Shown: positions 17,829 through 35,470 of the stretch, piece after piece
Position numbering within the stretch: position 1 is the stretch's first letter
How the letters are laid out: each line of letters opens with the position of its first letter
Source: a virus
IMG/VR virus record: IMGVR_UViG_3300032285_002244
Coordinates: 6,777 to 70,776 of that record
Direction: 5' to 3' (one strand)
DNA length: 64,000 nucleotides
Position numbers and translations under genes: made by a program
The notes under the pieces: model-generated
The model's database searches: none
Told to the model about the DNA's origin: nothing
What the model saw: the letters and a program-made list of their open reading frames with translations, nothing else

Positions 17829-17865
17829 TCGCATATTGTGACAGTTATGCGGTTAAATTACGACC

Positions 17866-18689: not shown

Positions 18690-18841
18690 GCTTTGCTACC
18701 ACTTGCTGTTGTGTTGAAGTCAGCTATCCCTGTCTTTTCGACATCGGAACGTTCTTTAGCCATCTGCTCTGTGAACTGAGTGCTAGATGCGTATGGGCTT
18801 ATACCGTATAGAGTCCAACCGAATTGGTCTTGTTTGCTCAT
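18686..18841 (-). CDS. Small hypothetical protein
   Basis: MSKQDQFGWTLYG...; overlaps both neighbours (TAATG, ATGA). Confidence 0.55.
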   Translation of the reverse strand: MSKQDQFGWTLYGISPYASSTQFTEQMAKERSDVEKTGIADFNTTASGSKA

Positions 18842-19742: not shown

Positions 19743-19815
19743 AGATAAATAATAAAGCTACTGCCTAGCTTTTACTGGATAAAAAAATATTTCATAGGGG
19801 TGGTAGGCTCTTTAT

Positions 19816-20463
19816 ATGGGAATCGAGAGGTCTATAGAAGCTGGCAAAAAGAACTTTGCTGAAGCCAATGCTAGAAGAAGAGCAGCGAGTGCTCCTAGAC
19901 GTGCTGCTGAAGCATTAACTAAAGAAGAGCGTCAACGTCGCATACTTATCAAAAGACTTATGAAAGCTATAAAGCGTTATGCCAAAGCTAGGGAGAGAGA
20001 ACTACTCAATAACCAACACGGCGTTATCGTAGGAGATTACAGTCGTTGTAAGAGGAATAACGGAACTGCATGTGAGCCTTGCAAGGCTATCGCTGCTAAA
20101 TATGTGAGTGATAAGTGGGCAACTGACCCTAAGTACAAAGCCAGGGAAAAAGAGTGGTACAAGAATAACCCCCATAAGCGTCCACCCAAAAGTAGAGACC
20201 GTGCCCGTAGAACGGGAGCAAAGCGTAGTTATTACACCCGTCAACAGGTATTTGACCGTGATGGCTATGATTGTTATATCTGCCATACGACAGTTGATTT
20301 AACTGCAACACATATCCAAGGGCAACCTGGTTGGGAAACCTACCCGCATATTGAGCATGTAATCCCCCTGTCTCTAGGTGGGGACGATACCCTCGAAAAC
20401 GTCAAAATAGCTCACGCCAAGTGCAACATCGATAAAGGCACCAATCTTCTGGCTACTGCCTAA
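19816..20463 (+). CDS. HNH endonuclease
   Basis: RDGYDCYIC...IEHVIPLSLGGDDTLENVKIAHAKCN. Confidence 0.88.
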   Translation: MGIERSIEAGKKNFAEANARRRAASAPRRAAEALTKEERQRRILIKRLMKAIKRYAKARERELLNNQHGVIVGDYSRCKRNNGTACEPCKAIAAKYVSDKWATDPKYKAREKEWYKNNPHKRPPKSRDRARRTGAKRSYYTRQQVFDRDGYDCYICHTTVDLTATHIQGQPGWETYPHIEHVIPLSLGGDDTLENVKIAHAKCNIDKGTNLLATA

Positions 20464-21285
20464 CCTCCACACCCTCAACCATGTCTCCAACCTGGACGTA
20501 CTGTGGGGAAATTTGACCTAACTATGGGTGGGTGTCGTAACTTCTTTATCAATTACATTTACTACTTGTTTATTTAACTTGTATTTATTGTTCTATTTAC
20601 GCACGAATAGTTACACAATTAAATAGTTTGATAGCGGAATTGATAGCGAGATTAAATTACTTTCGGCTACTGCTATTTAATTGTTATTTAATGCTGCGAA
20701 TAACACCAGCCTTACAGCCACCTTGCCTTGTTGTTATCAACTATTACACACGCATATAACTATTGTTATTCACTTACTATTTACAATATGAAACACATAT
20801 CATTTACTAAGTATTGTTAAGTAGTTATGTATCAATAGTTATATGTATTCATATTCAATAACCACAACACATAGTTATCTCTTATCTATTCTCTCTCTCT
20901 CTTTAGTTATTAGTAATCATTATTTATTTATATCTAAGGGGGCTACGCCCCCTATAACCCCCGACCTTCTTTACTATTAGTTTTATACGCTAACTATTTA
21001 ATTATGTAAATCAGATGCTATTAACAATAACTATTTAACTAAATAAGTTATGTAACTTCTTTTACTACATAACTAAATAGTTATTACAAACTACTTATCT
21101 TCTTATTACTTATATATAAATATCATTACTGAATAAAATAAATGCGCAATTAAATTCTTTTGGCTCTTTTGTCGGTGGCGGTGGCTAGGGTCTATCTATG
21201 GTCAAAATTTGCCCCTGCTCACGCTCAAAACACGCACACTTTTGCCTACTTGCGTATCGGGTAGGAGTTCGACTACAATTTCGCT
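20464..21285. other. AT-rich non-coding region, candidate genome terminus/entry end
   Basis: No ORF of 60 aa or more; abrupt composition change at about 20520. Confidence 0.5.
21250..21279 (+). promoter_or_regulatory. Sigma70/SigA-type early promoter
   Basis: TTGCGT (21250)-N18-TACAAT (21274). Confidence 0.6.
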
Positions 21286-21625
21286 ATCGGTTAGCCCTTC
21301 GGTCTTTGAACAGGTTAATGAATAAAAAACAAAAATTGTTTTTGGTATTCATATAAATTATTTTTGTAATTGTTAATCGCGCACTTGCGCTAAATAAATG
21401 ATTAACGATTATATAAAAATAAATATCTAACGCTTTTATTAAGGTAACAAGTTACTTAGGACTAACCGAATTGGGCAGACAAACTTCTGCTAGTAAATAA
21501 CTTCCGCGAAACCAACGCAATTAGTTATTACTACTACTACGGATTAACAATTAAATACTTTCTATCGCTCACTTGTTGTTACTTGTTATGAGCAAGTAAT
21601 GACAAGTGAGTGGTGGTGAGTAGTT
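21286..21625 (+). ncRNA. Putative structured RNA / long 5' leader
   Basis: Nested stems with G-U wobbles on the + strand; begins about 7 nt after the -10 box. Confidence 0.55.
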
Positions 21626-21670
21626 AAACTTCTTTAACACTCAACAACAACTAATGAAACGGAGTAACAA

Positions 21671-21958
21671 ATGACAACAACAACAACACGCAACACAGAA
21701 AATATCGTTACACGCAATCGCCGTTATCAAAACGCAAAAGAACGCGCAGACAAAGTAAATAAATCACTTGCGTATTTCTCAGAAGTAGTTGGTGTTCAAC
21801 TTACTGATGAACAAGTTGAAAAAATTGTCAATCACAGTAGCAGTTTCGCGTTACTAACACAGTTCGCTGATAGTTCTTATGCGTTGTATTCAGACTTTTG
21901 CGAACAACACAATTACAAAGAAAAAGATATTACTTACCTTTATCCATACATACACTAA
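21671..21958 (+). CDS. Early hypothetical protein
   Basis: GGAG RBS; first gene of the plus-strand operon. Confidence 0.75.
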   Translation: MTTTTTRNTENIVTRNRRYQNAKERADKVNKSLAYFSEVVGVQLTDEQVEKIVNHSSSFALLTQFADSSYALYSDFCEQHNYKEKDITYLYPYIH

Positions 21959-21968
21959 GGAGTAACAA

Positions 21969-22145
21969 ATGACTAACAAAATTAAATTAACAAATCGTGG
22001 CAAGTGGGTTGTTGGAATAACAATCGCAATCATTACTTATTTAATCTTTAGTTGGTTGTATGAAATAACAACTCCCGATACTTGTAAAGTGCCGATAGAT
22101 GAAATGTCGCACTTTTGTATTGACCTTCTTTATCCGCACTCATAA
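21969..22145 (+). CDS. Small membrane protein
   Basis: MTNKIKLTNRGKWVVGITIAIITYLIFSWLY...; AAGGAG RBS. Confidence 0.7.
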   Translation: MTNKIKLTNRGKWVVGITIAIITYLIFSWLYEITTPDTCKVPIDEMSHFCIDLLYPHS

Positions 22146-22169
22146 CAACAAATAGAAACGGAGTAACAA

Positions 22170-22277
22170 ATGACAATCGCAACAATAGATGAACAAGGCA
22201 TAACACTTCTCGTAGATGATGATGTAACTAATTACTCGCAACTCGTATCTTTACTGAATAAAAAGGAGAATAAATAA
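22170..22277 (+). CDS. 35-aa microprotein
   Basis: Same GAAACGGAGTAACAAATG leader as 21671. Confidence 0.55.
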   Translation: MTIATIDEQGITLLVDDDVTNYSQLVSLLNKKENK

Positions 22278-22543
22278 TGAAGGTTAAATTGCGTAAAAAA
22301 AACAAGTTAGATATACAAAACAATCTCGCAGTAACTATCGAGATTAAAAACGCATTGGAGTTTATTCACCCTGAATTAACTCCTGATGAAGTAAAAGATA
22401 AGTTGGTCTTTCTCCTAGCGACTATCGCTGACCCAACACTTCTTAAATACCTAAACAATCAATACCTAGAAAAAGCAAATACAAAAGTTGATGAAGTTAC
22501 GGAACTTTATTCAACCTTTTTTAGCGATACCGAAAACAACTAA
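22277..22543 (+). CDS. Early hypothetical protein
   Basis: AAGGAG RBS. Confidence 0.7.
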   Translation: MKVKLRKKNKLDIQNNLAVTIEIKNALEFIHPELTPDEVKDKLVFLLATIADPTLLKYLNNQYLEKANTKVDEVTELYSTFFSDTENN

Positions 22544-22570
22544 CAACAACTAACAGAAACGGAAAACAAA

Positions 22571-23887
22571 ATGTCTTACTCAATACTAATTAGCGCAACA
22601 ACAAACAACGCAGATGTAATACAGCAACACTTGTTAATCGAACACAATGGTAAGAAAACTATTTGGTCAAGGGAAACCAATGGTGGTCGTGGTGAAGTTA
22701 ATGCGTGGTCATTACAGGATTACGCAGATATAACAACACGCAATAGTGCGAACTTTATTATCGGTGAAGTTCTTTCCTCTCCACTAACCGAAGTTGATAT
22801 TGACGCAGTAGAAAATAATTACAAGCCAAATGTTTTGATACAAAAACTTTCAAAACAATATGGACTACGCCATAAAGAAGTTAGCACTCAAACACTAGGA
22901 GAAGTAATGACAGAAGTTACGGCACTAATTGATAGCGACTCACAACAACTAGAGAAGTATCGGTCAGACGGCAGAAGCGACAAACAAGCCACCACCCCGA
23001 AAAAATCTGACCCACAAGTTGTTGAACCAATTATAGAAATCGTAAGACAACAACCAATAACAACTTCACAAGAAGTTATTGGTAATTATGTAATTCATAT
23101 TCCAACAAAAGATGAAGTTGGAAATTATATTCCGCGAGTATTTGACGGAATAACAGAAAAGAAGTTTTGGGATTACGCAATCAATCACAAAGCCAATGTT
23201 CTTTTAGAAGGCGGTGCTGGCACAGGTAAAACTTCTAGCCCGTTACACGATAGTTATTTGCGACAACAAGGTTGTGTGTTAGTCGGTTGTTCAGTAGGAC
23301 TTGAAGTAAGTCATCTACTTGGCAAAGTTGTTATTGACCCAACAAGTGGAAAACCAACTTGGGTTGATGGCGTATTAACACAAGCGATGAAAAATGGAGA
23401 CAGAATTATTTTTGATGAAGTGGATTTTGCGCACCCTAAAGTGTTACAACGAATTCAAGATGTAGCACAAAATCGCAAACTAACACTTATTGAAAATGGT
23501 GGTGAAGTTGTTGTAGCACACCCACACTTCTCTTTAGTCGCTACTTACAATAACGGCTATCGTCATAGCAACAAATTAAACGAAGCGTTCTTAGATAGAT
23601 TTACAAAGGTTCGCTTTGATTACGACAACGATATTGAAAAGCAGATTATTAAATCAACAACACTTCTACAACTCGCAAACCAAATGAGAGCAGACAGTAT
23701 TAGTGGTTTATATTCGACACCAATATCACTTCGTATTCTCAATCGCTTTCAACAACAAGCACAAGAACTTAACTTCGAGTTCGCTTCAACTTCTTTTGTA
23801 ATGAACTTTACAGATGAGGAACGCTCAAGTGTGAAACTTCTTTTGGAAGCACACCGCACACAACTTGAACAAGAACTATCAAACTAA
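22571..23887 (+). CDS. MoxR/CobS-like AAA+ ATPase
   Basis: GGAGTGKT, WVDGVLTQAM, IIFDEVD, ATYN, LNEAFLDRF. Confidence 0.88.
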   Translation: MSYSILISATTNNADVIQQHLLIEHNGKKTIWSRETNGGRGEVNAWSLQDYADITTRNSANFIIGEVLSSPLTEVDIDAVENNYKPNVLIQKLSKQYGLRHKEVSTQTLGEVMTEVTALIDSDSQQLEKYRSDGRSDKQATTPKKSDPQVVEPIIEIVRQQPITTSQEVIGNYVIHIPTKDEVGNYIPRVFDGITEKKFWDYAINHKANVLLEGGAGTGKTSSPLHDSYLRQQGCVLVGCSVGLEVSHLLGKVVIDPTSGKPTWVDGVLTQAMKNGDRIIFDEVDFAHPKVLQRIQDVAQNRKLTLIENGGEVVVAHPHFSLVATYNNGYRHSNKLNEAFLDRFTKVRFDYDNDIEKQIIKSTTLLQLANQMRADSISGLYSTPISLRILNRFQQQAQELNFEFASTSFVMNFTDEERSSVKLLLEAHRTQLEQELSN

Positions 23888-23922
23888 GGCTCAACACGAA
23901 AAACTAACAGAAGGGAAATAAA

Positions 23923-25842
23923 ATGTTTTTACAAGAGCAAACAGATGAACGACAAAAAGCACTAGCAATTAAACACAATCGCGTAACAAAGTTAGCAAGC
24001 ATATTTGCGAGAGCAAATAGTGTGCTGACAGGAAAACGAATTGCGGTTAATGTTGTAAATCAAGAACACCAAAAATCTCCTGCTTGGTCAAGCACAAATG
24101 AACTCTGGTTGAACCTTGCGGAGATTAAAGATGATTTAACTGCTCAAAGTATTTTGTCTTATCAAGGCTTAAATTTCCACGAACTTAGTCATATCAAGTT
24201 TTCACCCCGTAATGGAAGCGAACTTGTTAAGTGGGTTAAGGAAAACAATTTATGGCAAGCGTTTAATTGTTTAGAGGACAACCGAATTGAAAACCTTATG
24301 GTTGCCTATCTACCAACAGTTTCAAATTGGCTGACCGCAACAATTACTGATTACTTGATGTGTAATGATGAAGCAATTAAAACTGCTTATCCACTTGTTA
24401 CAGGTCGCAGATACTTACCAATCGAAATGCGCAATCTAGCAAAAGATAATTATGCTAGACCGCAAGATGTTGATGAGTTGTATTCAATCGTTGATGAATA
24501 TATAGGTTTAATTTTTGAAGGCAATCCTTCTGCTACCGAACAAGCAAAACCACTTCTTACACGCTTTAACGAATTGTTAGAGCAACTTCCACCAATACCA
24601 AATCCAAATGGTGGAGAAGGTGGAGAAGGTGGCACAACAGTTATCTATCGTGTTCATAATCCTAATGGTCATAATCACCGACCAACAGAAGGATACGAAA
24701 GCAGTAGCAATCGCCCTGCTGGTAAATCTCAACAAGAACAATTTAGAGATAAGTCAAAAGCGAAAGATACTTCTAAAGAAAAAGTAATTGTTATAGATGT
24801 TCGTAACGATACAAAAGAAGGTAGCGATACTTCTGCTGGCGAGTCAAAAGAACAATCACTAAATCAATCAAGTGGAAATGATTTTAGTGATTTTAATTTT
24901 GATGAGCAATCTCCTAGTGATTTAGAAGGTGGAGAGTCTGCTGGTAATCAAGAAGGAACAACAGGAGATAATCAACAAGTAACCGAAACTCTTGACGGCA
25001 TTATGAAAGATATTGTTAAAGAACTTTCAAAAGACATTAACCAAATTGCGAAGCAACTAGGAATTAGTGTTGATTTAGAAGGTGGCAATATCGAAACACC
25101 TACTCGCGCACACTACAAAGATGTAACCGCTAATCCTGAATTGGTGCTTATATCTAAAGCGTTTGGAAAAGAGTTAGAGCGTTTGCGTTCTAACTACGAA
25201 CCTTATTGGGAAACAGAAGTGGATAATGGTCGCTTAAATGTTACTCGGTATCTTGACGGCAACGACTTCGATACAGTTTTTGATGAGTGGCAAGAAGGCA
25301 AAGATGATGTTACTTCTATTGAAGCAGTTATTCTTTTAGATAAAAGTGGCTCAATGAGTGGAGAAAATTCTGACAATGCTTACAAGTCAATGTGGGCTAT
25401 CAAGAAGGCACTTGAACAAGTAGAAGCACGAACAACAGTTTGTTTGTTCGATAGCAGAACAACACTTCTTTATAGTGCTGATGAAAGAGCAGGAAGCACT
25501 ATTAGAGATAGTGGTGCTAGTGGTGGCACTAATCCTTGCGACAGTTTGTTATACGCAAAGAAGGTCTTAGCAGATACAGATAAGAAAATTCGTATCTTGT
25601 TTATGATTACTGACGGCGCGTGGGAAACAGAAGCAGGAGAAAAAGCCATTACTGAAATGCGCAACGCTGGTGTTCTTACTTGCCAAGCGTATTTAGATAG
25701 TGGAGAAGCAAGGAAAGAATACCTAGAGAAATTGCGCCATAGTTTTGAGTTACTAACTCATATCAAATCCGCAAAAGATATTGCGATACTTGGTAAAGAG
25801 TTAGTTCGGTTAGCAATCGCTCGCAATCTAATCAATCACTAA
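23923..25842 (+). CDS. CobT-like VWA protein with N-terminal HExxH domain
   Basis: FHELSH...FNCLEDNRIE; acidic linker; MIDAS LLDKSGSM, GGT, ITDG. Confidence 0.85.
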   Translation: MFLQEQTDERQKALAIKHNRVTKLASIFARANSVLTGKRIAVNVVNQEHQKSPAWSSTNELWLNLAEIKDDLTAQSILSYQGLNFHELSHIKFSPRNGSELVKWVKENNLWQAFNCLEDNRIENLMVAYLPTVSNWLTATITDYLMCNDEAIKTAYPLVTGRRYLPIEMRNLAKDNYARPQDVDELYSIVDEYIGLIFEGNPSATEQAKPLLTRFNELLEQLPPIPNPNGGEGGEGGTTVIYRVHNPNGHNHRPTEGYESSSNRPAGKSQQEQFRDKSKAKDTSKEKVIVIDVRNDTKEGSDTSAGESKEQSLNQSSGNDFSDFNFDEQSPSDLEGGESAGNQEGTTGDNQQVTETLDGIMKDIVKELSKDINQIAKQLGISVDLEGGNIETPTRAHYKDVTANPELVLISKAFGKELERLRSNYEPYWETEVDNGRLNVTRYLDGNDFDTVFDEWQEGKDDVTSIEAVILLDKSGSMSGENSDNAYKSMWAIKKALEQVEARTTVCLFDSRTTLLYSADERAGSTIRDSGASGGTNPCDSLLYAKKVLADTDKKIRILFMITDGAWETEAGEKAITEMRNAGVLTCQAYLDSGEARKEYLEKLRHSFELLTHIKSAKDIAILGKELVRLAIARNLINH

Positions 25843-25850
25843 AGAAGTTA

Positions 25851-25878
25851 TGAGGGCAGATAAATAAATCTGCCCTCA
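25851..25878 (+). promoter_or_regulatory. Intergenic stem-loop without U-tract
   Basis: TGAGGGCAGAT-loop-ATCTGCCCTCA. Confidence 0.55.
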
Positions 25879-25920
25879 ACACGAAAAACTTACAATCAAC
25901 TAATAGAAACGGAAAACAAA

Positions 25921-26508
25921 ATGAAGCATAGTGAATTAAATGTTGGTGTTGAATACGCAGTAATTCCTAGTTGGACTTACTCGTCAAAGAGTGCTATGGA
26001 TATAGACAAAGTTAGAGAAAATGATGTTGTAAAAGCAGTTCTACTTTCTGCTGATAAGTATGAGTATGAAGCAAGTCAAAGAAGTTCTGACCCAACTTCT
26101 TTTAAGAAAGCAGAAGCAGGTAATAGAAGTGTTGGTGTTCTTGTAAAGGCAACAGATAAAAATGGTAGTGATGTTTATTGGACTTCACGCCTTACTCATA
26201 TTGTTGCGCCTTACGCAGTATTAGAACCTAAGTGGCAAAAAGCAAAGCAAGATGAGGAAGCAAAAGAACGCGAACAAAACGAGATACGAAACAGGGTTAA
26301 GGAACACCAGGCGCGTGTGAGTGCGGAAGTTGAACGCTCTCGTAATTCAGTAATCAATACTGCTAAAGAACTCTTAGGGGCAACAAGTGATGTAGAAGTT
26401 GATACTAGGGGTTACGAATTGGAATATCGCGGTGTTGTAAATTTATCAATCTCCGAGTTTGAGTTACTTGTCGAACTCGCTTATCAAGGAAAGAGTGCGG
26501 TGGCTTAA
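25921..26508 (+). CDS. Early hypothetical protein
   Basis: 195-aa ORF with repeated leader. Confidence 0.75.
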   Translation: MKHSELNVGVEYAVIPSWTYSSKSAMDIDKVRENDVVKAVLLSADKYEYEASQRSSDPTSFKKAEAGNRSVGVLVKATDKNGSDVYWTSRLTHIVAPYAVLEPKWQKAKQDEEAKEREQNEIRNRVKEHQARVSAEVERSRNSVINTAKELLGATSDVEVDTRGYELEYRGVVNLSISEFELLVELAYQGKSAVA

Positions 26509-26761
26509 ATGATTATCGAACTATCAAATGACCAACTCGCATTACTTCTAAAGGTGCTTGGTAAAGAAAAGGCTTATCTAAATGCTGGTGGGTTCTACGC
26601 AAGTGCGCACTTAGTTAGTGCGTTACAAGAACACTTAAAGAACAATGCTAAAGAAGGTGTGTAATGAACTTATGGAATTGGTTTATGGAAACACCCGAAA
26701 AAGTATTGATACTAATAATCGTAATACCAATAGCGGTTTATGTAATCGCAGATAGGAATAA

Positions 26762-27145
26762 ATGATGTTAATAGATGAAGCACTAACAACCCGTTATGAG
26801 AAAAAACCTAGAGTTTATTATTTCGTAGAAGCAAGTAATGGGGGCAGGTTAATTCGCGGTTCTTGGCGTGATATGTATTCACACGCGGTTATCGCTTGCC
26901 CTAAAGAACTTAACTATGAAAACGAAATATCTTATGGTTCTTTCCATAGCAGTAAGCAGTTAGCAGAACGCTCTAAGAAGTCTTGGGAAAACTATCAAAA
27001 GAAGGCTGGTAGTAATTACGAAGGTATGACTTGGGAAGTAGTGGAAGTAAAAAAGATTACTGCTAAAGAAGCAAGACAATTAAAGAACGCAGATAGAAAA
27101 GCATTAAAGGCTTGGAGAGAAAAACAGGTGCTAGTAAATAACTAG
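26762..27145 (+). CDS. Early hypothetical protein
   Basis: ORF with AGGA RBS. Confidence 0.7.
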   Translation: MMLIDEALTTRYEKKPRVYYFVEASNGGRLIRGSWRDMYSHAVIACPKELNYENEISYGSFHSSKQLAERSKKSWENYQKKAGSNYEGMTWEVVEVKKITAKEARQLKNADRKALKAWREKQVLVNN

Positions 27146-27164
27146 CCTTCAACACGAAAAAGAA

Positions 27165-27887
27165 ATGGAAAACAAAATGACTACAAATACAAAACGCAGA
27201 ACTGGTGGTGCGAAAGGTGCTAATGGTTATGGCGAATACAAAGTTAGATACGCAAGTGAAAGACAGACCTATTTCATAAAGAAGTTACTGGCTCAAAAGA
27301 AGCACAACTACGGAGAGTTAGATTTAACAACTCTTAATGTTCAAGGTGCTGGAGATGTAATCAATGAACTATTAAAGTGTCCTGATAAAGAAGGTTATGT
27401 AGAAGCACCAACAGAAAAACAACTTTCTTTTGCCCAATCTTTAATTACCAATAAAGAAGGTGGCACAGAACTTCTTAATAAGTTACTTAGTTCTCACAAC
27501 GCAACTTCTTTAGACCAACTTAGTAAGCAAGTAGTGTCTGGGATTATCAACACGCTAAAACTAGCAAAAGAAGTTCCACTATCAATAACCGAAGTAGGCG
27601 CGTATTTGAAAGACGCAACTATTTACTCAATTCGCAAAAGTAAAGAAAGCACAGTATTTCAAGTGTGGTCTTACAACAAAGATATGAATAAGTATCTTAG
27701 AGAACCAAACAACAATAAAGAAAAAGAGTTACTAAAGACATTACAACCAACAGACAGACTTACTTTAGAACTCGCAATTAGATACTCGGCTCAAACAGGA
27801 ATATGTGTCCATTGTGGGCGCACTCTTACGCTATTAAAGAGTGTGGCTGGCGGTATGGGTGCGGTATGCGCTAAGAGGTATCGCTAA
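27165..27887 (+). CDS. DUF6011-like Zn-finger protein
   Basis: ASERQ/PTEKQ repeats; C-terminal CVHCGRTLT...S...GMGAVCAKR; start probably 27177. Confidence 0.7.
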   Translation: MENKMTTNTKRRTGGAKGANGYGEYKVRYASERQTYFIKKLLAQKKHNYGELDLTTLNVQGAGDVINELLKCPDKEGYVEAPTEKQLSFAQSLITNKEGGTELLNKLLSSHNATSLDQLSKQVVSGIINTLKLAKEVPLSITEVGAYLKDATIYSIRKSKESTVFQVWSYNKDMNKYLREPNNNKEKELLKTLQPTDRLTLELAIRYSAQTGICVHCGRTLTLLKSVAGGMGAVCAKRYR

Positions 27888-28213
27888 TGTTAATTACTGC
27901 TAAAGAACTTAAAGCGTATATTGATAAGTGGTATGGACACGATTTAGACCAACCATTGTTCTTTATATGTATGGATAAAGGCGAATTACATAACTATCAA
28001 TTTGAACAACTATCGCAATACCAAACTGCTAATGACTTACCAATAGATTTAGTGGAAAAAGTATTTGACCAAATTAGTGAATACGATAGTTTTTGGGATA
28101 CCTTAAAAGACACTATCGAATACGAAGTTGATAATTGGGTAGTTAAACAAGACACAACCGAAATAGAAAACTTAGATAAAGAACTATGGGGAGATACAAA
28201 TGAAAGTAAGTGA
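27887..28213 (+). CDS. Acidic hypothetical protein ending KELWGDTNESK
   Basis: Coupled ORF. Confidence 0.7.
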   Translation: MLITAKELKAYIDKWYGHDLDQPLFFICMDKGELHNYQFEQLSQYQTANDLPIDLVEKVFDQISEYDSFWDTLKDTIEYEVDNWVVKQDTTEIENLDKELWGDTNESK

Positions 28214-28532
28214 GTTACAAGAACTGCTAAAGAAGTATGAACCTGATACGCAAGTAATTGTTGCGATATGGGATAAAGAGTGCTTCAAGGCTATGGACAC
28301 AGAGGAAAGATTAGTTACGGATAAAGAGTGGGATTATGTAGCAGAAAAGTTTAATGTTGGACTACACGATTTAACTCTTGGTGCTTCAATCCGTAATGTA
28401 TTAGAAAACGAAATAGAAATACAAAATAAAAAAACAGACGAGTTTATATCTGACTATATGGCTAGTTATCTAGCAGGAGTAACAGATGAACAACTATGGG
28501 ATAGCCCCACAACGAAAAAAGGAGAACAGTAA
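28200..28532 (+). CDS. Acidic hypothetical protein (possible paralog of 27887)
   Basis: MKVSELQELL; EQLWD near C-terminus. Confidence 0.7.
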   Translation: MKVSELQELLKKYEPDTQVIVAIWDKECFKAMDTEERLVTDKEWDYVAEKFNVGLHDLTLGASIRNVLENEIEIQNKKTDEFISDYMASYLAGVTDEQLWDSPTTKKGEQ

Positions 28533-29119
28533 TGGCAACACAGAAAGTCGTAGTAGGCAATAAGCAAAAGAAATCTCACTTAACACTTCCAAAAGAAACT
28601 GCGGAAATCCTAAAGAACTTAGCCTTCAAAGAACGCAAAGCGTATGCTGAAGCGTTATGTAACAAAGGCTGGACTTATCAAAGTATCGCTGATGTATTGG
28701 GTCTTAGCAGACAAGCAATAGAGCAATATGTTAAATCCAATTCGGTAAAGAGTGGAGAAGTAAGAGCGCAGATTATTGACTTGCCTATTCCTGAATTACC
28801 TACTACACCAATCTATAAGTCGCAGATAGTAGAAGCAGACCCACAAGTAATCGCAGAACTAAAAGAACTTCACTCCAAAGCAAAATTAGTTAGGGGTAAA
28901 GGTAAGGCTTATCGAAAGGAAGCAGAGTTATTTACTAAGTTGGCTTGGGAACAATGCCAAAATGGTATAACTATTTATTCTTTAGCAAAGTCTTTAGGTA
29001 TAACCAATGGCGCATTAACTTTTAGATTTGTGCGTTATGGATATATGAAATCAAATGGAAAAGCAAAGGTCTTTAGACAACTAACAAATAGGGAGAGTTT
29101 AGATGAGCGCAGTAATTGA
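28532..29119 (+). CDS. Tandem HTH DNA-binding protein
   Basis: GWTYQSIADVLGLSRQAIEQY and GITIYSLAKSLGITNGAL. Confidence 0.75.
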   Translation: MATQKVVVGNKQKKSHLTLPKETAEILKNLAFKERKAYAEALCNKGWTYQSIADVLGLSRQAIEQYVKSNSVKSGEVRAQIIDLPIPELPTTPIYKSQIVEADPQVIAELKELHSKAKLVRGKGKAYRKEAELFTKLAWEQCQNGITIYSLAKSLGITNGALTFRFVRYGYMKSNGKAKVFRQLTNRESLDERSN

Positions 29120-29546
29120 AAGAACAGAGTCAAAAGTTGATAACTACCACCAATTAGAGTGTCAAGTAACGCTTTCTGACTTAGAACAAATCGTAATCAA
29201 AGCACCTAAATACGCAGGATATAAACTTGTAAATGGAAGTTGGGTTGCCAATCAACCCGAACTTCGTAAGTATCGTGTTACAAGACTTTTTTATTCTTTA
29301 ACAGAGGATAAAGATAATCCAAATGGTGTTATCAAAATACATAGGATAGACGGCAATTACTTCAACAAAGGAAGCAATCGTATTGGTGTTAGAACCACTT
29401 GGTTAAATCCTACAAAAGAAGTTATAGAACAGTTGCCAGACTCAATTCACGATAGGGCTAGAGCCAACTTTCAAAATGTAGTAACACCATTACTACAAAG
29501 CGTGTTAGAAAAAGGGCTAGTAATAGGAGAATATACAAATGCCTAA
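29103..29546 (+). CDS. Early hypothetical protein
   Basis: GGAG RBS. Confidence 0.65.
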   Translation: MSAVIERTESKVDNYHQLECQVTLSDLEQIVIKAPKYAGYKLVNGSWVANQPELRKYRVTRLFYSLTEDKDNPNGVIKIHRIDGNYFNKGSNRIGVRTTWLNPTKEVIEQLPDSIHDRARANFQNVVTPLLQSVLEKGLVIGEYTNA

Positions 29547-30189
29547 TTGGACAAGTAATTATTTAACAGTTAGCGGAAATCCAAAACAGTTAAATAAGTT
29601 TCTTAAAGAAGTTGAACGGACTTCAACAGAAGCAGACAACCATTACTCACAAAGCAAATTGGCTTTCAATCGCATTATTCCAATGCCTGATGAACTTCTT
29701 GTAGGAGAGGCTTGGTATGGTTGGCGTAATGCGAACTGGAATACGAAGTGGGAAGCCCGTATTGATTACGAAACAACAGACCAATGGGAAAGTGGAGAAG
29801 TCTTTTTTGAGTTCTCAACCGCTTGGTCTGCGCCAATTCCTATTATTGAAAAGTTAATTACAAGTTATCCGCAATTAACTTTTAACTTTAAGTGTTGGGA
29901 AGAAAGTTACGAATTTTGGGGAGATTTTACAGGCTCTAAAGGAGAGTTAATTTGTAACTATTACGGCGAGTTTCGTAATTGTGATGATTACAACCAATTT
30001 CAACTAATTCACCACTCTTGCCAAGTATGTAACAATAGTGTTGAGTGTGATGAAGCAAATAGCACAGAGCAAGAAGTAACTTGTAATGAGTGTGATAAAG
30101 AAGTTAGCCAACACGAAAAAGAACTATGGGGGGATACAAATGAAGTTAAAGAAGCACCCGACTCAGAAACAATGTTACTTAACTCTTGA
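29539..30189 (+). CDS. DUF1281/YubB ferredoxin-like protein
   Basis: MPNW.SN.L, F..IIPMP, WY.WR..NW.TKW, F.TAWS.P. Confidence 0.75.
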   Translation: MPNWTSNYLTVSGNPKQLNKFLKEVERTSTEADNHYSQSKLAFNRIIPMPDELLVGEAWYGWRNANWNTKWEARIDYETTDQWESGEVFFEFSTAWSAPIPIIEKLITSYPQLTFNFKCWEESYEFWGDFTGSKGELICNYYGEFRNCDDYNQFQLIHHSCQVCNNSVECDEANSTEQEVTCNECDKEVSQHEKELWGDTNEVKEAPDSETMLLNS

Positions 30190-30367
30190 CGATAGGTTCA
30201 AGATAGTTAAGACAGATGAAAACAAGTGGGCGTGGTTTGAACTAGACGGCAAAGGAAACTACCACCGATACGATACAAAAGAATATAGGACAAGAAGTTG
30301 GTGTGAAATGGAAATCATAAATGCCAACGCTCAAGTAGAAACAGAGGAAGCACTATGGAACGACTAA
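30140..30367 (+). CDS. Hypothetical protein ending EEALWND
   Basis: Likely ATG at 30140 after G-rich RBS. Confidence 0.6.
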   Translation: MKLKKHPTQKQCYLTLDDRFKIVKTDENKWAWFELDGKGNYHRYDTKEYRTRSWCEMEIINANAQVETEEALWND

Positions 30368-30689
30368 ACGAACTGATTAACGGGTTGTGCGGTATTGAAG
30401 CAAAACCCAAAGATGTTGAAGCAATAAATAAAGTAATTGATTTTTTAACAACTTTACGAGAAAGAGAGAACAATAAATGACTATGAGTAGTTACTTGTAT
30501 GAGTTAATAGAACTAGAAAAGGAACAAAAACTATGGGATATGTAGAGATAGAACCTATTGGTAATCGCAAGTTAGATGTATGCGATAACTGCCAACAACA
30601 AGGTGTCTACGAAAATGGCAAGGAAATCAAAGACAGTTACGAACAAGTCGTAATGTGGTTCTGCGTTAATTGCGCTAGACGGGTTCTTA

Positions 30690-31331
30690 GTGGCAACAAG
30701 AACTAAAGTATGTATTGGGTGCTTTTACCCATTACCCCTATCAAAATTTAATAAATACGATATGGGTAAATATGGAGTAAGAGCAAGATGTAAAAAGTGT
30801 TTTGCGATACACCGCAAGGGAAGCGCAAAGCGCGTAGCAAAGCGCAAAAAATTAGAGGCTAAAGGCTTACGACCTTGCGCTGGTTGTGGCAAAGCAAAAC
30901 CCTTCTCACAATTTCAAGAAAAGACACAGGCAAATGGTAAAGAAGGTTGGGAAGGGAAATGTAAGCCTTGTGTTTCTATTCGGCAAAGACATAGCAACTT
31001 GAATAGGAATAAAGAAGCAAGACACTATGTTTTTGAGTTCTTAAAGAAGCACCCTTGTATTGATTGTGGCGAAACAAATGTATTAGCACTTGAATTCGAC
31101 CACACTCATAGCAAGAAGTTTGATATTGGTAACGCGCTAAATAGTAATGTTCATATCACGCTCTTAAAGAAAGAAATGAAAAAGTGTGTGATTAGATGTT
31201 CAAGTTGCCACAGAGTTAAAACGCATATCGAGAGAGATACTTGGAGATACCGACTCTCTTTACAAGACAAAGCAACTAATCGTAAGACTAGAAATACAAA
31301 GCAATTCAAAGCCTTAAAGAAGGTTAGTTAA
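30690..31331 (+). CDS. HNH-type endonuclease (paralog of 12708..13184)
   Basis: HPCIDCGETNVLALEFDH...IRCSSCHR; duplicated N-terminal CxxC modules. Confidence 0.8.
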   Translation: MATRTKVCIGCFYPLPLSKFNKYDMGKYGVRARCKKCFAIHRKGSAKRVAKRKKLEAKGLRPCAGCGKAKPFSQFQEKTQANGKEGWEGKCKPCVSIRQRHSNLNRNKEARHYVFEFLKKHPCIDCGETNVLALEFDHTHSKKFDIGNALNSNVHITLLKKEMKKCVIRCSSCHRVKTHIERDTWRYRLSLQDKATNRKTRNTKQFKALKKVS

Positions 31332-31344
31332 ACTTCTTTATCAT

Positions 31345-31382
31345 AGGGGCAGGTAGCCAATCGGCTATCTGCCCCTTTTTTT
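31345..31382 (+). terminator. Rho-independent terminator ending the early operon
   Basis: AGGGGCAGGTAGCC-AATC-GGCTATCTGCCCCT followed by T-run. Confidence 0.85.
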
Positions 31383-31449
31383 ATGCCTTTTTTGTAAGTT
31401 ACTCGCCAGTAGGGTATTGTGTGGTCTAGTTCACACAGGGGGGTCTGAT

Positions 31450-32763
31450 ATGGCGTATGTAATTAAGCGTGGAAATCGCTACACAGGCTATTACCGAGCA
31501 GAGGGCAAAGCCAAATCGGTAGGCACTTTCGATAGCAGGTCTAAAGCCTTGTCTGCGGGTCTTATGGCAGAGGAAGGCGTATTCAATGCCCTGCCCGAAC
31601 AACAGGACACCCTTGCCACATATACCCAAAACTTAATACTTAGAACAGATGTTCGACTAAGCACAAAGCGACATTATTTAATCCTCTTAAAGAAGTATGC
31701 CCTACCCAAATTAGGTAACAAAAAGTTATCAACCATAAAGAAGCAAGATATACGGCAGTTACTAGCCGAACTCCAAAGCGAAGGCGCAAGCCTATCCACT
31801 CTCTCACACCTCAAAACGGCATTAGGTTATCTATTTAGACAAGCCGTAGATGATGAGGTAATCCCAACCAACCCAACTCACAATATCAAGACCAAAGTTC
31901 CTAAGCCAGACCCCACTTACACCCTTGACCCTAAAGACTTTCATAAAGTCTTAAAGAAGTTACCCACAGACGGGGCTAAATTGTTTGCCAGATTTCTTAT
32001 AGGTTCGGGTTGTCGCTATGGCGAAGCAACAGAACTACGCGTTAAAGACATTAACTTTAACTCTAAAGAAGTTTATATTGTAAGAACAGTAAGTGATGTT
32101 GGTAGAAAGTTAAACAATGGAGAAAGATTCCAAGTAGTATCCGCCACAAAAAATGGACACAAGCGCACAGTAGTCCTATCGGCGGCACTCATAGCAGAGC
32201 TTCGAGCTTTTGTAACAGCAAAAGCCTTATCAAAAGAAGAGTTAATCTTCTCTAAGCACTTAGTCTTAGAAGAAGATAAACTAGGAAGCCCTAGTGAAAG
32301 CCAAAAGCCATACACGAAGGGAAGCAAGACCTTTAGCCACGCTACGGCATATTCGTATAATGTAGGTGGTTGTAGGTGTAGCCAATGTAAGGAAGCGGTA
32401 AAGGATTACCGCAATCAATACAGAAAGGACAAAGCGAAGGCAAAAGTAGAAAGCCATAGCAGAAGCCATAGCAGAAGCCTTACCAAAAGCCAAAGCCATA
32501 GCAAAAGCAATGATTATCTACCCCGTGACAGGTGGCGAGCCACTTGGAACAAAGCCATAGAACAGTCAGGTATTGGTTGGTATCCAAAAACGCACGACCT
32601 TAGACACGCCAATGCGACTCTACTTCTAACAAAGGGAGTTGATGTGAATGAGGTTAAAGAGCGATTAGGACATCAGTCAATCACAACGACGGAGAGGTAT
32701 TTACACCGAATCCGTCACCAGCAATCAAAGGCTGCCGAGGTAGCCAATGATTATTTGGAGTAG
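31450..32763 (+). CDS. int: Tyrosine recombinase/integrase with Zn-binding insertion
   Basis: GCRYGEA, TKNG, HDLRH, LGH, TERY catalytic set; start MAYVIKRG at 31450. Confidence 0.88.
   Translation: MAYVIKRGNRYTGYYRAEGKAKSVGTFDSRSKALSAGLMAEEGVFNALPEQQDTLATYTQNLILRTDVRLSTKRHYLILLKKYALPKLGNKKLSTIKKQDIRQLLAELQSEGASLSTLSHLKTALGYLFRQAVDDEVIPTNPTHNIKTKVPKPDPTYTLDPKDFHKVLKKLPTDGAKLFARFLIGSGCRYGEATELRVKDINFNSKEVYIVRTVSDVGRKLNNGERFQVVSATKNGHKRTVVLSAALIAELRAFVTAKALSKEELIFSKHLVLEEDKLGSPSESQKPYTKGSKTFSHATAYSYNVGGCRCSQCKEAVKDYRNQYRKDKAKAKVESHSRSHSRSLTKSQSHSKSNDYLPRDRWRATWNKAIEQSGIGWYPKTHDLRHANATLLLTKGVDVNEVKERLGHQSITTTERYLHRIRHQQSKAAEVANDYLE
32451..32510 (+). repeat. 12-bp AAGCCATAGCAG-type tandem repeat (array 1)
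   Basis: Units at 32451, 32463, 32475, 32493. Confidence 0.75.
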
Positions 32764-33389
32764 TGAAAGATATGAAACTAACAAAAAGAGGAAAAGTAGT
32801 CTTTGGAACGTTATTTTTGGTAGCGTTTTTGGCAAGCGAGTTGGTTTTAGGAATTCCAAAAGCCTTCTCTCCTACCAAAGCCGAAGCACTAGTAATCCAC
32901 AAACAAGCAATAATGCACACGCTAGATAAGTATAAAAACGCAGACCAACTCAACGACAGCCAGTTGATTGAGTTACTAGGCGCAGTTGGCTTCAAAGGCA
33001 AAGCCTTAGAAGAAGCGTGGGCAATATCAAAGAAAGAATCACATGGTAGCCCTCTAGCCCATAATGGGAACCGAAAGACAGGAGATAACTCTTATGGGTT
33101 ATTTCAAGTCAATATGTTGGACTCCCTAGGCGTAGACAGAAGGGAACAATTCGGTTTAGCGTCTAACGCTGAACTGCTAAACCCTGTGGTCAATGCCCAA
33201 ATCGCTTATTACATGAGCGAAGGTGGCAAAGATTGGAGTGCGTGGAAAGGAGCACACCAAGCAGTAGTAAAGGCTTGGTTAAAGAAGTATCCTCACAAAA
33301 CGACAACCACAAAGGCGCACAAAGCAAAGGTGAAAGCCAAAGCAAAAGCAAAAGCCGTAGCAAAAGCAAAGCCTACGCAGAAGCAATAG
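32763..33389 (+). CDS. Membrane-anchored lytic transglycosylase (SLT-like)
   Basis: N-terminal TM; AISKKES, SYGLFQVN, NPVVNA.IA, WSAW; AK-rich tail. Confidence 0.85.
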   Translation: MKDMKLTKRGKVVFGTLFLVAFLASELVLGIPKAFSPTKAEALVIHKQAIMHTLDKYKNADQLNDSQLIELLGAVGFKGKALEEAWAISKKESHGSPLAHNGNRKTGDNSYGLFQVNMLDSLGVDRREQFGLASNAELLNPVVNAQIAYYMSEGGKDWSAWKGAHQAVVKAWLKKYPHKTTTTKAHKAKVKAKAKAKAVAKAKPTQKQ

Positions 33390-33404
33390 CAGAAGCGATA
33401 GCAA
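33334..33404 (+). repeat. 12-bp AAGCNNTAGCAR-type tandem repeat (array 2)
   Basis: Units at 33352, 33369, 33381, 33393; continue past the stop codon. Confidence 0.7.
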
Positions 33405-33439
33405 AAGACCCCCTAGCCATTTTGGTTAGGGGGTCTTTT
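33403..33439. terminator. Bidirectional terminator between convergent operons
   Basis: AAAAGACCCCCTAGCCA-loop-TGGTTAGGGGGTCTTTT. Confidence 0.85.
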
Positions 33440-33454
33440 ATTGTTCTTTATAAG

Positions 33455-35470
33455 TTATTGGTTATCTTTAATGAGCTTTACTTCACAAGCATCGGTGGTG
33501 CAGTAAGCCTCACCAATAGCGTCTGAGGCCATACCAGCATAAACACCACTAAAGTCTATTGGGAAGAGTTGCATTGTGTAACCCTCATATTCTTCAGCAG
33601 TAATCTGAGTGTAAGGCATTTGAGGATAAACTTGGTTACCCATAGGTAAGAAACTAATCGTCTTTAACTGACCGTCATACATGTGTAAGACTGATTCAAT
33701 ATCGTCTGCTTCCTTCTCAGCATCAAAAGTAACAGTTACTGATACAGAGTTATCTGACCAGTATCTCTGAGCAGCAGCCGCTAGTGCTACCTTCTCATAG
33801 ATAGTTACTTCCTTCTCTGCTCTTTTAGCATTAGTCTCTACAGGGAAAAATACAACACTCGTAGTTTCGGGCGATTCTGCTGCAGGTTCGATTCTATATT
33901 GCGCCATTTGAAATAGCGGAAGCATTGGGTCGTTGTTAGCAAAACGGATAGCACGAAGAAAGTGTTTACCACCAGAAGCCCAGTGAACTCCAGGAGATTC
34001 ACCAGCAAGGATTGAAACAGTTCCTGATGGCTTCACAGTTGTAGTCTTTATAGACTCACGGATACCAAGCCATTCTGAGTAGTTGATGTCGTGGGCTTTA
34101 ATGACTTTGTAACCTTCATCCATCCAAGTGCGAAGTTCAGACCAACCGTTATTGTCAGCAAAGTTAGCAACACCAGAGATTGAAGTTCCAATACGGCGAT
34201 TGCGTTGCATGATTGCGTTGGTCTCTTGCCAATGAGTTGGAATAAGAGTTACGGTCTTTGCGTAAAGGTAAGCAAATTTCAAAGTGCGTTTGAAGTCATC
34301 TATGTTGTCATGGCGATTCAAGTAAGTCTCTACCAGTGTGCAACATTCGTATGATTCCAAAGATTGTTCTGCACAAGGGTTGTACCCAGCAATACGCCAA
34401 TCTTTGTTATTGATTGGGTCAGCAAGACGACCATATTGACGAGACACATCCATCCAAATAACTCCAGGCTCACCGTTGCGGGCAATACCATCGATGATTG
34501 GTGACAGGTCTTGTCCGACAGATACCTCAACAGAGTTGTTAGACATCCAACCATGTGCCATACGTTCAGGATACTTCTCATAGTTCTTTAGGTTTAGAAA
34601 GTCTTCGTCATCCAAACGACCCATAAGTAGTTCTGCTGAACGACGAACGTTTCCTGATACAACACAGACACCAATCATGTTTCCAATGTCAGCAATATCT
34701 CTGCGGGTCAGCTTCTTACCAGCACGACCAGCAAACATCTGACAGAGGTATTGGTGTAACTTCTCTAACGGCTCATGTCCTGCTGCGGTTCCACCAAAGG
34801 TTTTAATTGGCGTACCTGCTGGGCGGATTTCTTTGTAATCAAATACTGGAGCCTTGCAATCTGGCTTGAGGAAGGCATTGATGAGGGTCGCTGTTGATTC
34901 GACCCACCCTTCGCGGGTGTCGGGGATGACATAGGTTTCTCCTTGTTGTGGTTCGTAAATAGTGAAGTCTTTATCGGCACCCTTATCGTCAAAGCCAACG
35001 CCTACCCCAAGCATTGAGGCTTCCATTAGAAAAGCGAATGGTTTGGCAGGGTCTGTCTTGTTCATAGAGCCCGTTGATACAAAGGCACAGTTCTGCAATG
35101 CTGCGGAATTACGTTGTTCGTTTACTAGTGGAGTTCCCATAACCCATAGGCCTCTTCCAGGTGGAGTCCACTTCAAGTTAAAAAGACGGTCAAAAGCTTC
35201 TTTAGCAGAAGCGGCGGCTTTAGCATCTGACCATGGAAGACGGTTTAATTTTGCGTGGTCTTTCTGCAATGAGTACATACCGTTGATGACTCGTTGGCAA
35301 ACGTCTACCCAAGTTTCTTTAGTACCATCTGCCTTCAACCGAGAATAGGTTCTTAAAAAAGTAATTTCACCAACAGAGTTACCTGCGGCATCTTGATAAC
35401 CAAATGGGGCCTTCTTCCCCTTGTAAGAGTCCACAAACTCAGTTGCTAATTCGAATGAAAACAATCCCAT
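33455..35470 (-). CDS. nrdJ: Class II (B12-dependent, monomeric RTPR-type) ribonucleotide reductase
   Basis: PPGRGLW, ALQNCAF, GNVRRSAE, NPCAEQ.L, TVKPSGT, C-terminal CTTDAC. Confidence 0.93.
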   Translation of the reverse strand: MGLFSFELATEFVDSYKGKKAPFGYQDAAGNSVGEITFLRTYSRLKADGTKETWVDVCQRVINGMYSLQKDHAKLNRLPWSDAKAAASAKEAFDRLFNLKWTPPGRGLWVMGTPLVNEQRNSAALQNCAFVSTGSMNKTDPAKPFAFLMEASMLGVGVGFDDKGADKDFTIYEPQQGETYVIPDTREGWVESTATLINAFLKPDCKAPVFDYKEIRPAGTPIKTFGGTAAGHEPLEKLHQYLCQMFAGRAGKKLTRRDIADIGNMIGVCVVSGNVRRSAELLMGRLDDEDFLNLKNYEKYPERMAHGWMSNNSVEVSVGQDLSPIIDGIARNGEPGVIWMDVSRQYGRLADPINNKDWRIAGYNPCAEQSLESYECCTLVETYLNRHDNIDDFKRTLKFAYLYAKTVTLIPTHWQETNAIMQRNRRIGTSISGVANFADNNGWSELRTWMDEGYKVIKAHDINYSEWLGIRESIKTTTVKPSGTVSILAGESPGVHWASGGKHFLRAIRFANNDPMLPLFQMAQYRIEPAAESPETTSVVFFPVETNAKRAEKEVTIYEKVALAAAAQRYWSDNSVSVTVTFDAEKEADDIESVLHMYDGQLKTISFLPMGNQVYPQMPYTQITAEEYEGYTMQLFPIDFSGVYAGMASDAIGEAYCTTDACEVKLIKDNQ

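Follow-up and report, generated by a model that had tools for sequence, protein, structure and literature searches.

The window and its site-free block

The window examined here, i.e. the whole stretch of 64,000 nt that was analysed, comprises bases 6777 to 70776 of a single virus contig of 70,776 nt (IMG/VR record IMGVR_UViG_3300032285_002244), the completeness of which is rated at 73%; unless stated otherwise, positions refer to the window. The contig encodes a portal protein, a large terminase subunit (TerL), a family-A DNA polymerase, a DnaB-like helicase, a primase, a UvsX-like recombinase, a Cas4-type exonuclease, a ribonucleotide reductase (RNR) and a DpdA-like protein, all of them on the − strand. 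The only long + strand run in the contig consists of the long open reading frames (ORFs) between 21671 and 33389, which without exception lie on the + strand and read inward from what is predicted below to be an end of the genome, the rest of the genome being encoded on the − strand. It is over this run and the non-coding DNA in front of it that six four-base palindromes are missing.

Between 20499 and 32197 the sites ACGT, AGCT, CATG, GGCC, GTAC and TGCA have zero copies each, while the remaining window holds 165, 165, 159, 41, 165 and 293 copies, respectively, i.e. 988 sites in total or about 19 per kb. Taken together, the six sites leave a single gap of 11,700 nt (20498 to 32198), while the runner-up gaps measure 603 and 373 nt. 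The original prediction that these palindromes are missing from 20505–32195 is thus borne out by the counts, as is its claim that GCGC, CTAG and TCGA are tolerated, the block containing 29, 30 and 17 copies of them; A/T-only palindromes are tolerated as well. On the left the purge begins sharply, with the final sites at 20480 (CATG), 20496 (ACGT) and 20498 (GTAC) and with five site types stopping within at most 89 nt of each other. On the right it is graded, AGCT returning at 32198, ACGT at 32808, TGCA at 32914, CATG at 33042, GGCC at 33527 and GTAC at 34382, and the density of the six sites climbs stepwise from 4 to 8, 14 and 20 per kb, so that the block is followed by the following zone:

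32198–35500, no strand: graded recovery zone, in which the six sites reappear across the strand switch into the RNR gene

Codon and amino-acid usage cannot explain the purge, because synonymous-codon permutation in the block's own ORFs, with the proteins and the block codon usage kept (500 trials), yields 152.5 ± 9.7 sites with a minimum of 121, and 0 are observed. This codon-aware null, which had been proposed together with the original prediction, is a conservative one, since the codon usage of the block has already been shaped by the purge. A maximal-order Markov model of the block itself gives expectations of 11.5 to 43.9 copies per site. Outside the block the six sites are found at 0.59 to 0.94 of their Markov expectation and are therefore close to neutral there. 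An internal control is provided by two paralogous HNH genes, of which the one within the block (30690–31331) has none of the six sites and the one at 12663–13184 has two copies each of ACGT, CATG and TGCA and one of GTAC. The site-forcing dipeptides Met-His, Met-Gln and Trp-Pro do not occur in block proteins, which with just 4.6 expected is not decisive.

The purge is real, and it is selective for palindromes plus some pentamers resembling Type IIS sites. Across five genomes of the family, every one of the 120 non-palindromic 4-mers is present in each 10-kb window, and palindromes fall to zero over the block only, with TCGA in the relative G001 (31.5–47.5 kb) as the sole exception. The degenerate sites ACSGT, CASTG, GGNCC, GTSAC and CGWCG have 0 copies in the block of the window, and CCWGG (1 copy, 15.4 expected), GCWGC (1, 25.7), GAWTC (1, 19.8) and CTSAG (2, 15.6) are nearly absent. 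Among pentamers with an expectation of at least 8, examined in windows of 11.7 kb, ten are at zero in the block (ACCGT, CACGG, CACTG, CAGTC, CATCC, CATTC, CGTCC, GCTCC, GGACC and GTCAC), and none is at zero in any such window clear of the block. Seven further pentamers are at or below 10% of expectation, including GAAGA with 2 copies versus 40.5 (about 40–50), so that the scarcity of GAAGA and CCWGG that had been noted by eye is found in the counts, too. The G + C content of the block is 37.0% as compared to 42.0%.

There is also a second tier of avoidance, which is genome-wide. GATC and CCGG have 0 copies in the whole 70,776-nt contig, with Markov expectations outside the block of 138.5 and 47.5, respectively; all 24 related loci lack GATC, and 20 of the 24 lack CCGG. 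In some lineages AGCT, CGCG or TCGA are missing genome-wide and belong to this second tier.

The purge in related phages

A search with the large VWA-domain protein encoded in the block recovered 24 IMG/VR loci at 48–65% identity. Four long relatives (98,099, 99,864, 92,874 and 89,243 nt), the TerL proteins of which are 84–91% identical, were taken whole, and each of them has one opposite-strand block that is syntenic with the block of the window. Proteins of the block are 33–73% identical to those of the relatives, as compared to 77–92% for the adjacent RNR, 63–83% for the DpdA-like protein and 84–91% for TerL. Fast divergence is typical of early or anti-defence regions, and the faster divergence of the block with respect to its neighbours was therefore counted in favour of an early, leading-end function.

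In all, 25 lineages or loci were compared, of which ten had less than 2 kb of flanking sequence, so that 15 could be assessed; block-only absence of a site required an expectation of at least 5. By this measure, GGCC is absent from the block only in 12 of the 15 assessable lineages, ATAT in 11, ACGT in eight, AGCT in six, GTAC in five, CATG and TGCA in two each, and CCGG in one. Absence everywhere is found for GATC in all 15, for AGCT in nine (those without block-only status), and for CGCG and TCGA in five each. These numbers include close kin (L016, L018–L021, L023 and G003 on the one hand, L005 and L006 on the other), and the independent lineages number nearer eight. Thus, the comparison with related genomes that had been suggested at the outset reveals a homologous block which is purged there of other, lineage-specific palindromes, as the following sets illustrate:

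G001: ACGT, GGCC
G002: GGCC
G003: ATAT, GTAC, GGCC
L024 and L022: ACGT, AGCT, ATAT, GGCC
L008: ACGT, AGCT, ATAT, CATG, CCGG, GGCC

Throughout, the block is syntenic, and the genes for an AAA_5 protein, the VWA protein and a 195-aa protein (p195) are kept in 15 of 15 lineages. Genome-wide avoidance of ACGT, ATAT, GTAC, CATG, TGCA or GGCC is seen in none of the five long genomes. Comparing the presence or absence of block genes with AGCT status gave no clean candidate, the comparison being confounded by clade structure.

The two edges behave differently across the family. At the distal edge, measured from the predicted genome end described below, sites are back at 11.7–13.9 kb in the window, at 11.7–11.8 kb in L024 (GGCC at 14.9 kb), at 12.0–13.4 kb in L022, at 12.7 kb in G001 (GGCC at 15.7 kb), beyond 13.7 kb in L006, and at about 18–21 kb in G003, where the purge runs 4–7 kb beyond the operon into the convergent genes. 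A hard proximal limit combined with a soft, lineage-dependent distal one fits exposure by order of entry rather than a transcription unit or an acquired module, for which two sharp edges would be expected.

In the structural-gene region of G001 (L026–L027), positions 31007–47825, i.e. 16.8 kb, are devoid of TCGA although the genome has 113 copies. This is the sole palindrome-free 10-kb window outside the block among the five genomes, and the stretch may be a recombinant derived from a TCGA-avoiding lineage.

The phage and its cultured relatives

Megablast of the block against cultured phages gave no match. At the protein level, the nearest cultured phages are the Streptomyces phages BRock, Alone3, LuckySocke, GiJojo and pSt2308 and, more distantly, the Bacillus phage BCD7, with identities to the nearest cultured phages of 53% for TerL, 37–38% for the DNA polymerase and 34% for the DpdA-like protein. 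The contig also carries a gene that is shared by the family:

48147–48461 of the window (contig 54992–55216), − strand: WhiB-family gene

WhiB is encoded by five of five genomes of the family and, in the control set, only in Corynebacterium. Two contigs of 17 and 15 kb (L051 and L052) with TerL proteins 77–78% identical are found in metagenome-assembled genome (MAG) bins labelled Saccharimonadales and Nanopelagicaceae; in all probability these are phage contigs that ended up in the bins, and the hint at a host is weak as binning can misplace phage contigs. The sequencing runs that hold small shares of the sequence are freshwater metagenomes. Taken together, the virus is most likely an actinophage of freshwater Actinobacteria.

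Bases 1–200 of the contig, upstream of the window, are made up of a run of 9-nt repeats, AGTACCATT and variants thereof, which on the other strand encode a collagen-like Gly-X-Y repeat. The gene is probably a tail fibre gene, and the repeats are a likely reason for the assembly to stop there.

In the deposited records of Alone3, BRock and GiJojo, both termini carry an exact repeat, of 197, 221 and 197 nt, respectively, and these were taken as the physical ends of the genomes. In all three, GGCTACTGC lies inside the repeat and precedes its inner boundary by exactly 35 nt, and the variant [GT]G[AC]TACTGT lies 36 nt before the outer boundary, so that [GT]G[AC]TACTG[CT] is found 35–36 nt before six of six terminal-repeat boundaries. 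The orientation of the motif relative to the gene block is the same in the cultured three and in the window. Like the window as predicted below, BRock, Alone3 and GiJojo have at that end a 10–12-kb block of small genes on the minority strand, which converges on genes including the DpdA-like gene (annotated as such in GiJojo), and an HNH gene at the opposite end, the similarity of which to the HNH protein of the window covers about 30 aa only. They differ in that the genes of their terminal blocks are not detectably homologous to those of the window, that a search found no Streptomyces phage with the AAA_5 protein, and that their G + C content is 52–57%. In Alone3 (L046, 9127–9798) and GiJojo (L049, 5431–6084) an ArdA-like anti-restriction gene is annotated between the DpdA-like gene and the terminal block.

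The proximal edge as a predicted genome end

Homology between lineages begins at the proximal edge, and the sequence to the left of it is unrelated, consisting of an HNH gene in some lineages and of other DNA in others. The edge itself falls on a conserved non-coding element that starts with GGCTACTGCC, has ACCTGG at +31 and runs on through tandem TTGATAGC boxes to a second GGCTACTG motif with ACCAG at +31/32. The two GGCTACTG motifs are 201–227 nt apart in 16 of 16 loci, and 214 nt apart in the window. If the rule of 35–36 nt from motif to boundary is carried over from the three cultured relatives, a repeat is predicted at about 20496–20708, and the features around the edge are the following:

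19816–20463, + strand: HNH endonuclease gene (Pfam HNH, 2.7e-6), abutting the edge from outside, with 15 copies of the purged sites
20451–20459, + strand: first GGCTACTGC motif, then ACCTGG at +31; candidate recognition signal for the left-end cut
20496–20708, + strand: predicted short direct terminal repeat of about 213 nt, with the second GGCTACTGC at 20665–20673 and ACCAG at +32; single copy in the assembly
20496–21670, + strand: non-coding AT-rich leader, the first ~500 nt conserved across lineages, with tandem TTGATAGC boxes and AACTATTTAA-type repeats

The end thus predicted, at about 20496, is no more than 6 nt away from the last purged site, and the final copies of ACGT and GTAC would lie in the first six bases of the genome. 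In none of the 16 loci does a purged site start further than 5 nt inward of the predicted end, and 13 of the 16 have one up to 101 nt outside. In addition, the window shares a 16-nt identity around the motif with the BRock repeat, with a score of 32 as compared to a maximum of 26 in shuffled sequences (0 of 300 reach it). The sharp edge therefore looks like a physical genome end, as predicted via homology to three mutually related phages, and by this prediction the HNH gene at 19816–20463 would be the last gene before the other end of the genome.

With respect to the size of the repeat, coverage was taken from assembled contigs of the probable source run, in which contig depth is a coarse measure. 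A contig lying wholly in the block (23828–31869) has a depth of 12.4 versus 13.2–15.9 outside, i.e. there is no twofold depth, which provides moderate evidence against a long T5-type repeat. Start or end points of molecules are not apparent in the contigs, an observation that for contig data is uninformative with regard to termini.

The contig ends of G003 and G004 had been considered as genome ends as well, and this was dropped as the start of G004 aligns inside G003 at 6092; G003 stops about 0.5–0.8 kb short of the conserved element. No direct or inverted repeats flanking the block were found, and an invertible segment was likewise discarded for the lack of flanking inverted repeats.

The 1.2-kb leader probably holds early promoters or entry signals. 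Its small ORFs have no homologue in the relatives. Rfam searches at gathering thresholds gave 0 matches, and no tRNA genes were found.

Genes of the block and its neighbours

Following the leader, the genes of the block and the features next to it are, in order:

21671–22543, + strand: three small early ORFs of 95, 58 and 88 aa with a shared GGAG ribosome-binding leader
22571–23887, + strand: MoxR-type AAA+ ATPase, core gene (Pfam AAA_5, 7.9e-22; 15 of 15 lineages)
23923–25842, + strand: large acidic 639-aa protein with a C-terminal VWA domain, core gene (VWA_2, 3.5e-5, below the Pfam cut-off; 15 of 15 lineages)
25921–26508, + strand: conserved 195-aa protein, core gene (15 of 15 lineages; AF2 model with a pLDDT of 89.2)
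27165–27887, + strand: conserved 240-aa protein with a C-terminal Cys/His motif (DUF6011, 5.7e-5, below cut-off; PHROG 636; 13 of 15 lineages; pLDDT 81.5)
27887–28532, + strand: two small, very acidic, lineage-specific proteins (108 aa, pI 4.1; 110 aa, pI 4.4)
28532–29119, + strand: helix-turn-helix DNA-binding protein (HTH_3, 2.4e-5; 11 of 15 lineages)
29539–30189, + strand: acidic protein (pI 4.4) with a DUF1281_C ferredoxin-like domain
30690–31331, + strand: HNH endonuclease (PHROG 2255, 7.2e-29), the N-terminal part also matching the Lar-like restriction-alleviation PHROG 5558 (5.9e-12)
31417–32763, + strand: tyrosine recombinase of the integrase family (Phage_integrase, 2.4e-21), 57–73% identical in relatives and containing the AGCT at 32198
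32763–33389, + strand: lytic transglycosylase-like protein (SLT_3, 8.5e-15), last + strand gene of the block
33403–33439, no strand: 17-pair hairpin at the convergent junction with the RNR gene
35654–37159, − strand: DpdA-like (tRNA-guanine-transglycosylase-like) protein of 501 aa adjoining the block (PHROG 887, 1.8e-57 over the full length)

Genes of the block have in common a conserved leader for translation initiation (…AGAAACGGA[GA]…ATG), which includes a ribosome-binding site of the GGAG type; copies of this leader are found at

21639–21688
22138–22187
22539–22588
25884–25923
27140–27179

and the operon is probably closed by the 17-pair hairpin acting as a bidirectional terminator. The VWA protein is presumed to be the partner of the AAA+ ATPase. 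No convincing Pfam or PHROG family was found for the three small early ORFs, and the models of the 195-aa and the 240-aa protein have no Foldseek match in the Protein Data Bank (PDB) at E ≤ 0.001. Neither of the two small acidic proteins has a homologue in G001–G004, one of them being shared only with L022; judged by their charge only, they are candidates for anti-restriction proteins of the DNA-mimic type. Genes for HNH proteins of the homing type are sporadic across lineages and not conserved. The DpdA-like gene, in turn, is conserved from the family of the window (63–83% identity) to the Streptomyces phages; its product matches no Pfam family and no PDB entry by sequence. At 32438–32513 and 33327–33419 there are 12-nt periodic repeats, which encode Lys/Ala/Glu-rich tails, the former within the gene of the recombinase and the latter at the C-terminal end of the transglycosylase.

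A probable early-entering segment exposed to host restriction

On balance, the block is probably the leading end, with the early operon, of an actinophage with short terminal repeats, and it would be exposed to host restriction until the remaining genome is protected by an early function. The comparative evidence and the predicted terminus support the interpretation given in the original prediction, with the correction that the genome would be of the short-repeat type. We infer a linear, non-permuted genome with the block at its leading end, so that the edge would be the virion end, this end would enter first, and genes of the block would afford the protection. From the end inward, a short terminal repeat would be followed by the 1.2-kb leader and by a single early operon. 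Since DNA of the block would be in the cell, probably that of a freshwater actinobacterium, while Type II and Type IIS enzymes of the host are still active, it would have to stay intact, and the targets of these enzymes would have been selected out of it. One or several early products might then safeguard the rest by inhibiting the enzymes, by shielding the DNA or by gating later entry. If the rest is protected early on, sites elsewhere would be nearly neutral, and the sites avoided genome-wide might be the targets of enzymes that the early function cannot neutralise.

A bolder version of this proposal, which is put forward only tentatively and seems rather doubtful at present, is that the early operon encodes a novel and broad-acting protection of incoming DNA from many unrelated Type II and Type IIS enzymes. 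A candidate would be the universally conserved pair of AAA+ ATPase and VWA protein, which might act as a gate for a second stage of DNA entry or as a shield, and the small acidic proteins specific to single lineages could add further specificities. If this were true, the site-free length, from 11.7 to about 21 kb, would measure the DNA exposed before protection, and the two tiers would sort host enzymes into those that can be neutralised and those that cannot.

Several observations weigh against an early-entering, restriction-exposed leader. One contig of the probable source run (17711–23855) crosses the edge without a break, which is compatible with a short repeat collapsed in the assembly, and also with circular permutation. 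The three cultured phages on which the predicted end depends are close to each other and distant from the family of the window, their block genes are non-homologous, and no purge of 4-mers is seen in the terminal blocks of Alone3 (50.9 kb examined) and BRock (20 kb examined). Promoters resembling those of sigma-70 are not enriched in the leader (12 as compared to 41.8 ± 7.0 in shuffles, over 18000–36000), and their under-representation suggests other promoter types in the host or the phage. Among the block proteins no known anti-restriction family was found at the curated thresholds of Pfam and PHROG, the weak Lar-like match aside; in particular, there is no family of the Ocr, ArdA or SAMase type in the block ORFs scanned. 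The TCGA-free stretch of G001 shows that members of the family do inherit site-free DNA in a mosaic fashion. Finally, to our knowledge no mechanism is known by which many unrelated Type II enzymes could be neutralised.

Among the alternatives, an unlikely one assumes that a protective base such as a 7-deazaguanine, introduced with the help of the DpdA-like protein, is present everywhere except in the terminal ~12 kb, so that the purge would mark a regional lack of modification. The conservation of the DpdA-like gene beside the block, both in the family and in the cultured relatives, would fit, and the two tiers could reflect which sites the modification is able to mask. However, QueC (PF06508) was found in 0 of 5 genomes while it was detected in 14 of 14 controls (QueD, QueE and FolE were not searched for), and no gene for an N6/N4 or C5 methyltransferase is present in any of the five genomes, two of which are rated 100% complete. 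The DpdA-like protein itself resembles neither a Pfam family nor a solved chain by sequence, ATAT, which contains no G or C, is absent from the block only in 11 of 15 assessable lineages, and a graded modification would have to be assumed to account for the soft distal edge. Moreover, we know of no mechanism that leaves one segment of a genome unmodified.

It is less probable still that nucleases of the phage itself are being avoided, i.e. that early phage enzymes cut these palindromes in host DNA at a time when self-protection does not yet exist. In line with this, several HNH endonuclease genes reside in and around the block, and the genome-wide absence of GATC and CCGG would be in keeping with a phage nuclease directed against host DNA. 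But between 6 and 20 specificities would be needed, which would have to differ between close lineages, the HNH genes of the homing type are sporadic, and the remaining genome would still require a later protection, which adds a step.

A mosaic origin, with the block being a module from a phage that avoids the sites genome-wide and the pattern thus reflecting history rather than current regional selection, is to be regarded as very improbable. While the lower G + C content of the block, the integrase gene and the 16.8 kb without TCGA in G001, by which site-free segments are seen to be inheritable by recombination, speak for it, the block is syntenic in 15 of 15 lineages and has the same proximal edge in 16 of 16 loci, and yet the purged sets differ. 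Genome-wide avoidance of the block-only sites is not seen in any of the five long genomes, and in G003 the purge extends 4–7 kb past the block. Nor does the block look like a foreign island, as there are no flanking repeats and its core is present in 15 of 15 lineages.

Hardly tenable is a long terminal repeat of the T5 type, i.e. the 11.7-kb block being located at both virion ends and collapsed in the assembly, with its composition resulting from replication or repair specific to the repeat, for although T5 has a terminal repeat of similar size that contains its first-injected DNA, the depth of the block (12.4 versus 13.2–15.9, by the coarse measure of contig depth) is not twofold and the repeats of the cultured relatives measure 197–221 nt.

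If the block is indeed an early-entering segment exposed to restriction, the sequence of uncultured phages would by itself reveal which end enters and roughly how much DNA is exposed, and would provide a read-out of the restriction repertoire of the host. Lineages that tolerate a site outside the block and lineages that avoid it there would offer a genetic handle on functions protecting late-entering DNA from Type II enzymes, and genome-wide statistics of site avoidance would badly misjudge selection wherever it is regional. The phages in question appear to infect abundant freshwater Actinobacteria. No prior description of these phages or of a regional multi-site purge was found in the literature, supplements and subscription journals not having been searched, and a search on BRock likewise gave nothing about the ends of its genome.

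Comparison with known systems

The leading DNA of plasmids enters single-stranded. A survey of 1751 plasmids describes the leading region as 'not consistently depleted' in palindromes of 4–8 bp (PMC13478746), so that leading regions of conjugative plasmids show no consistent depletion, whereas the depletion in the block of the window is total.

The closest precedent is coliphage T5, the record of which annotates first-step-transfer (FST) DNA in a terminal repeat of 10,219 nt with an injection stop signal. The idea of restriction acting on first-injected DNA reportedly dates to work on T5 from 1979. As cited in PMC12455610, an EcoRI site gained in FST DNA sensitises T5 to restriction. According to the T5 record and the papers, FST DNA is a leading segment of about 10 kb which enters first, carries pre-early genes and is devoid of a site that is found elsewhere, the rest being insensitive once these genes act, and the block would resemble it in this; the protective function is called 'elusive' in PMC8594841. 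When the same test was applied to T5 (62,000 of 121,750 nt examined), EcoRI had 0 sites in the repeat versus 4 in 10,220–62,000, with an expectation of 0.8, and none of the 16 four-base palindromes was missing from the repeat. The signature of T5 is therefore a single 6-bp site and statistically invisible, while the window has six tetramers and ten pentamers at zero. T5 differs further in its 10.2-kb terminal repeat, as the window lacks a doubled depth and short repeats are predicted for it, and no sequence relationship of the block to T5 genes was seen. The analogy to the leaders of T5 and T7 drawn in the original prediction consequently stands with respect to the site-free region and the co-directional genes reading inward, and it fails for a long repeat of the T5 type, as the depth is not twofold and the relatives have repeats of 197–221 nt.

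In the T7-like Murciavirus, the Type I system Mme2I has recently been shown by experiment to restrict only if its motif lies in the early-injected region (PMC12455610). There, a single Type I motif is concerned in podoviruses of about 40 kb, whereas the family of the window has genomes of about 90–100 kb and many 4–5-bp sites resembling those of Type II and Type IIS enzymes.

T7-like phages share with the window, as predicted here, a linear genome with short terminal repeats and early genes reading inward from the entering end. T7 has Ocr, whereas none of Ocr, ArdA and SAMase-type proteins was detected in the block ORFs scanned, and since transcription of the remaining genome runs in the direction of the block, an entry of the whole genome driven by transcription is unlikely.

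Taken together, the concept is known from T5 and from T7-like phages, and what is new here is by far the strongest signature, its two tiers and its variation between lineages. This signature is absolute, comprises at least 16 motifs and differs between close lineages, and it is the clearest so far for DNA that has to survive before restriction is switched off.

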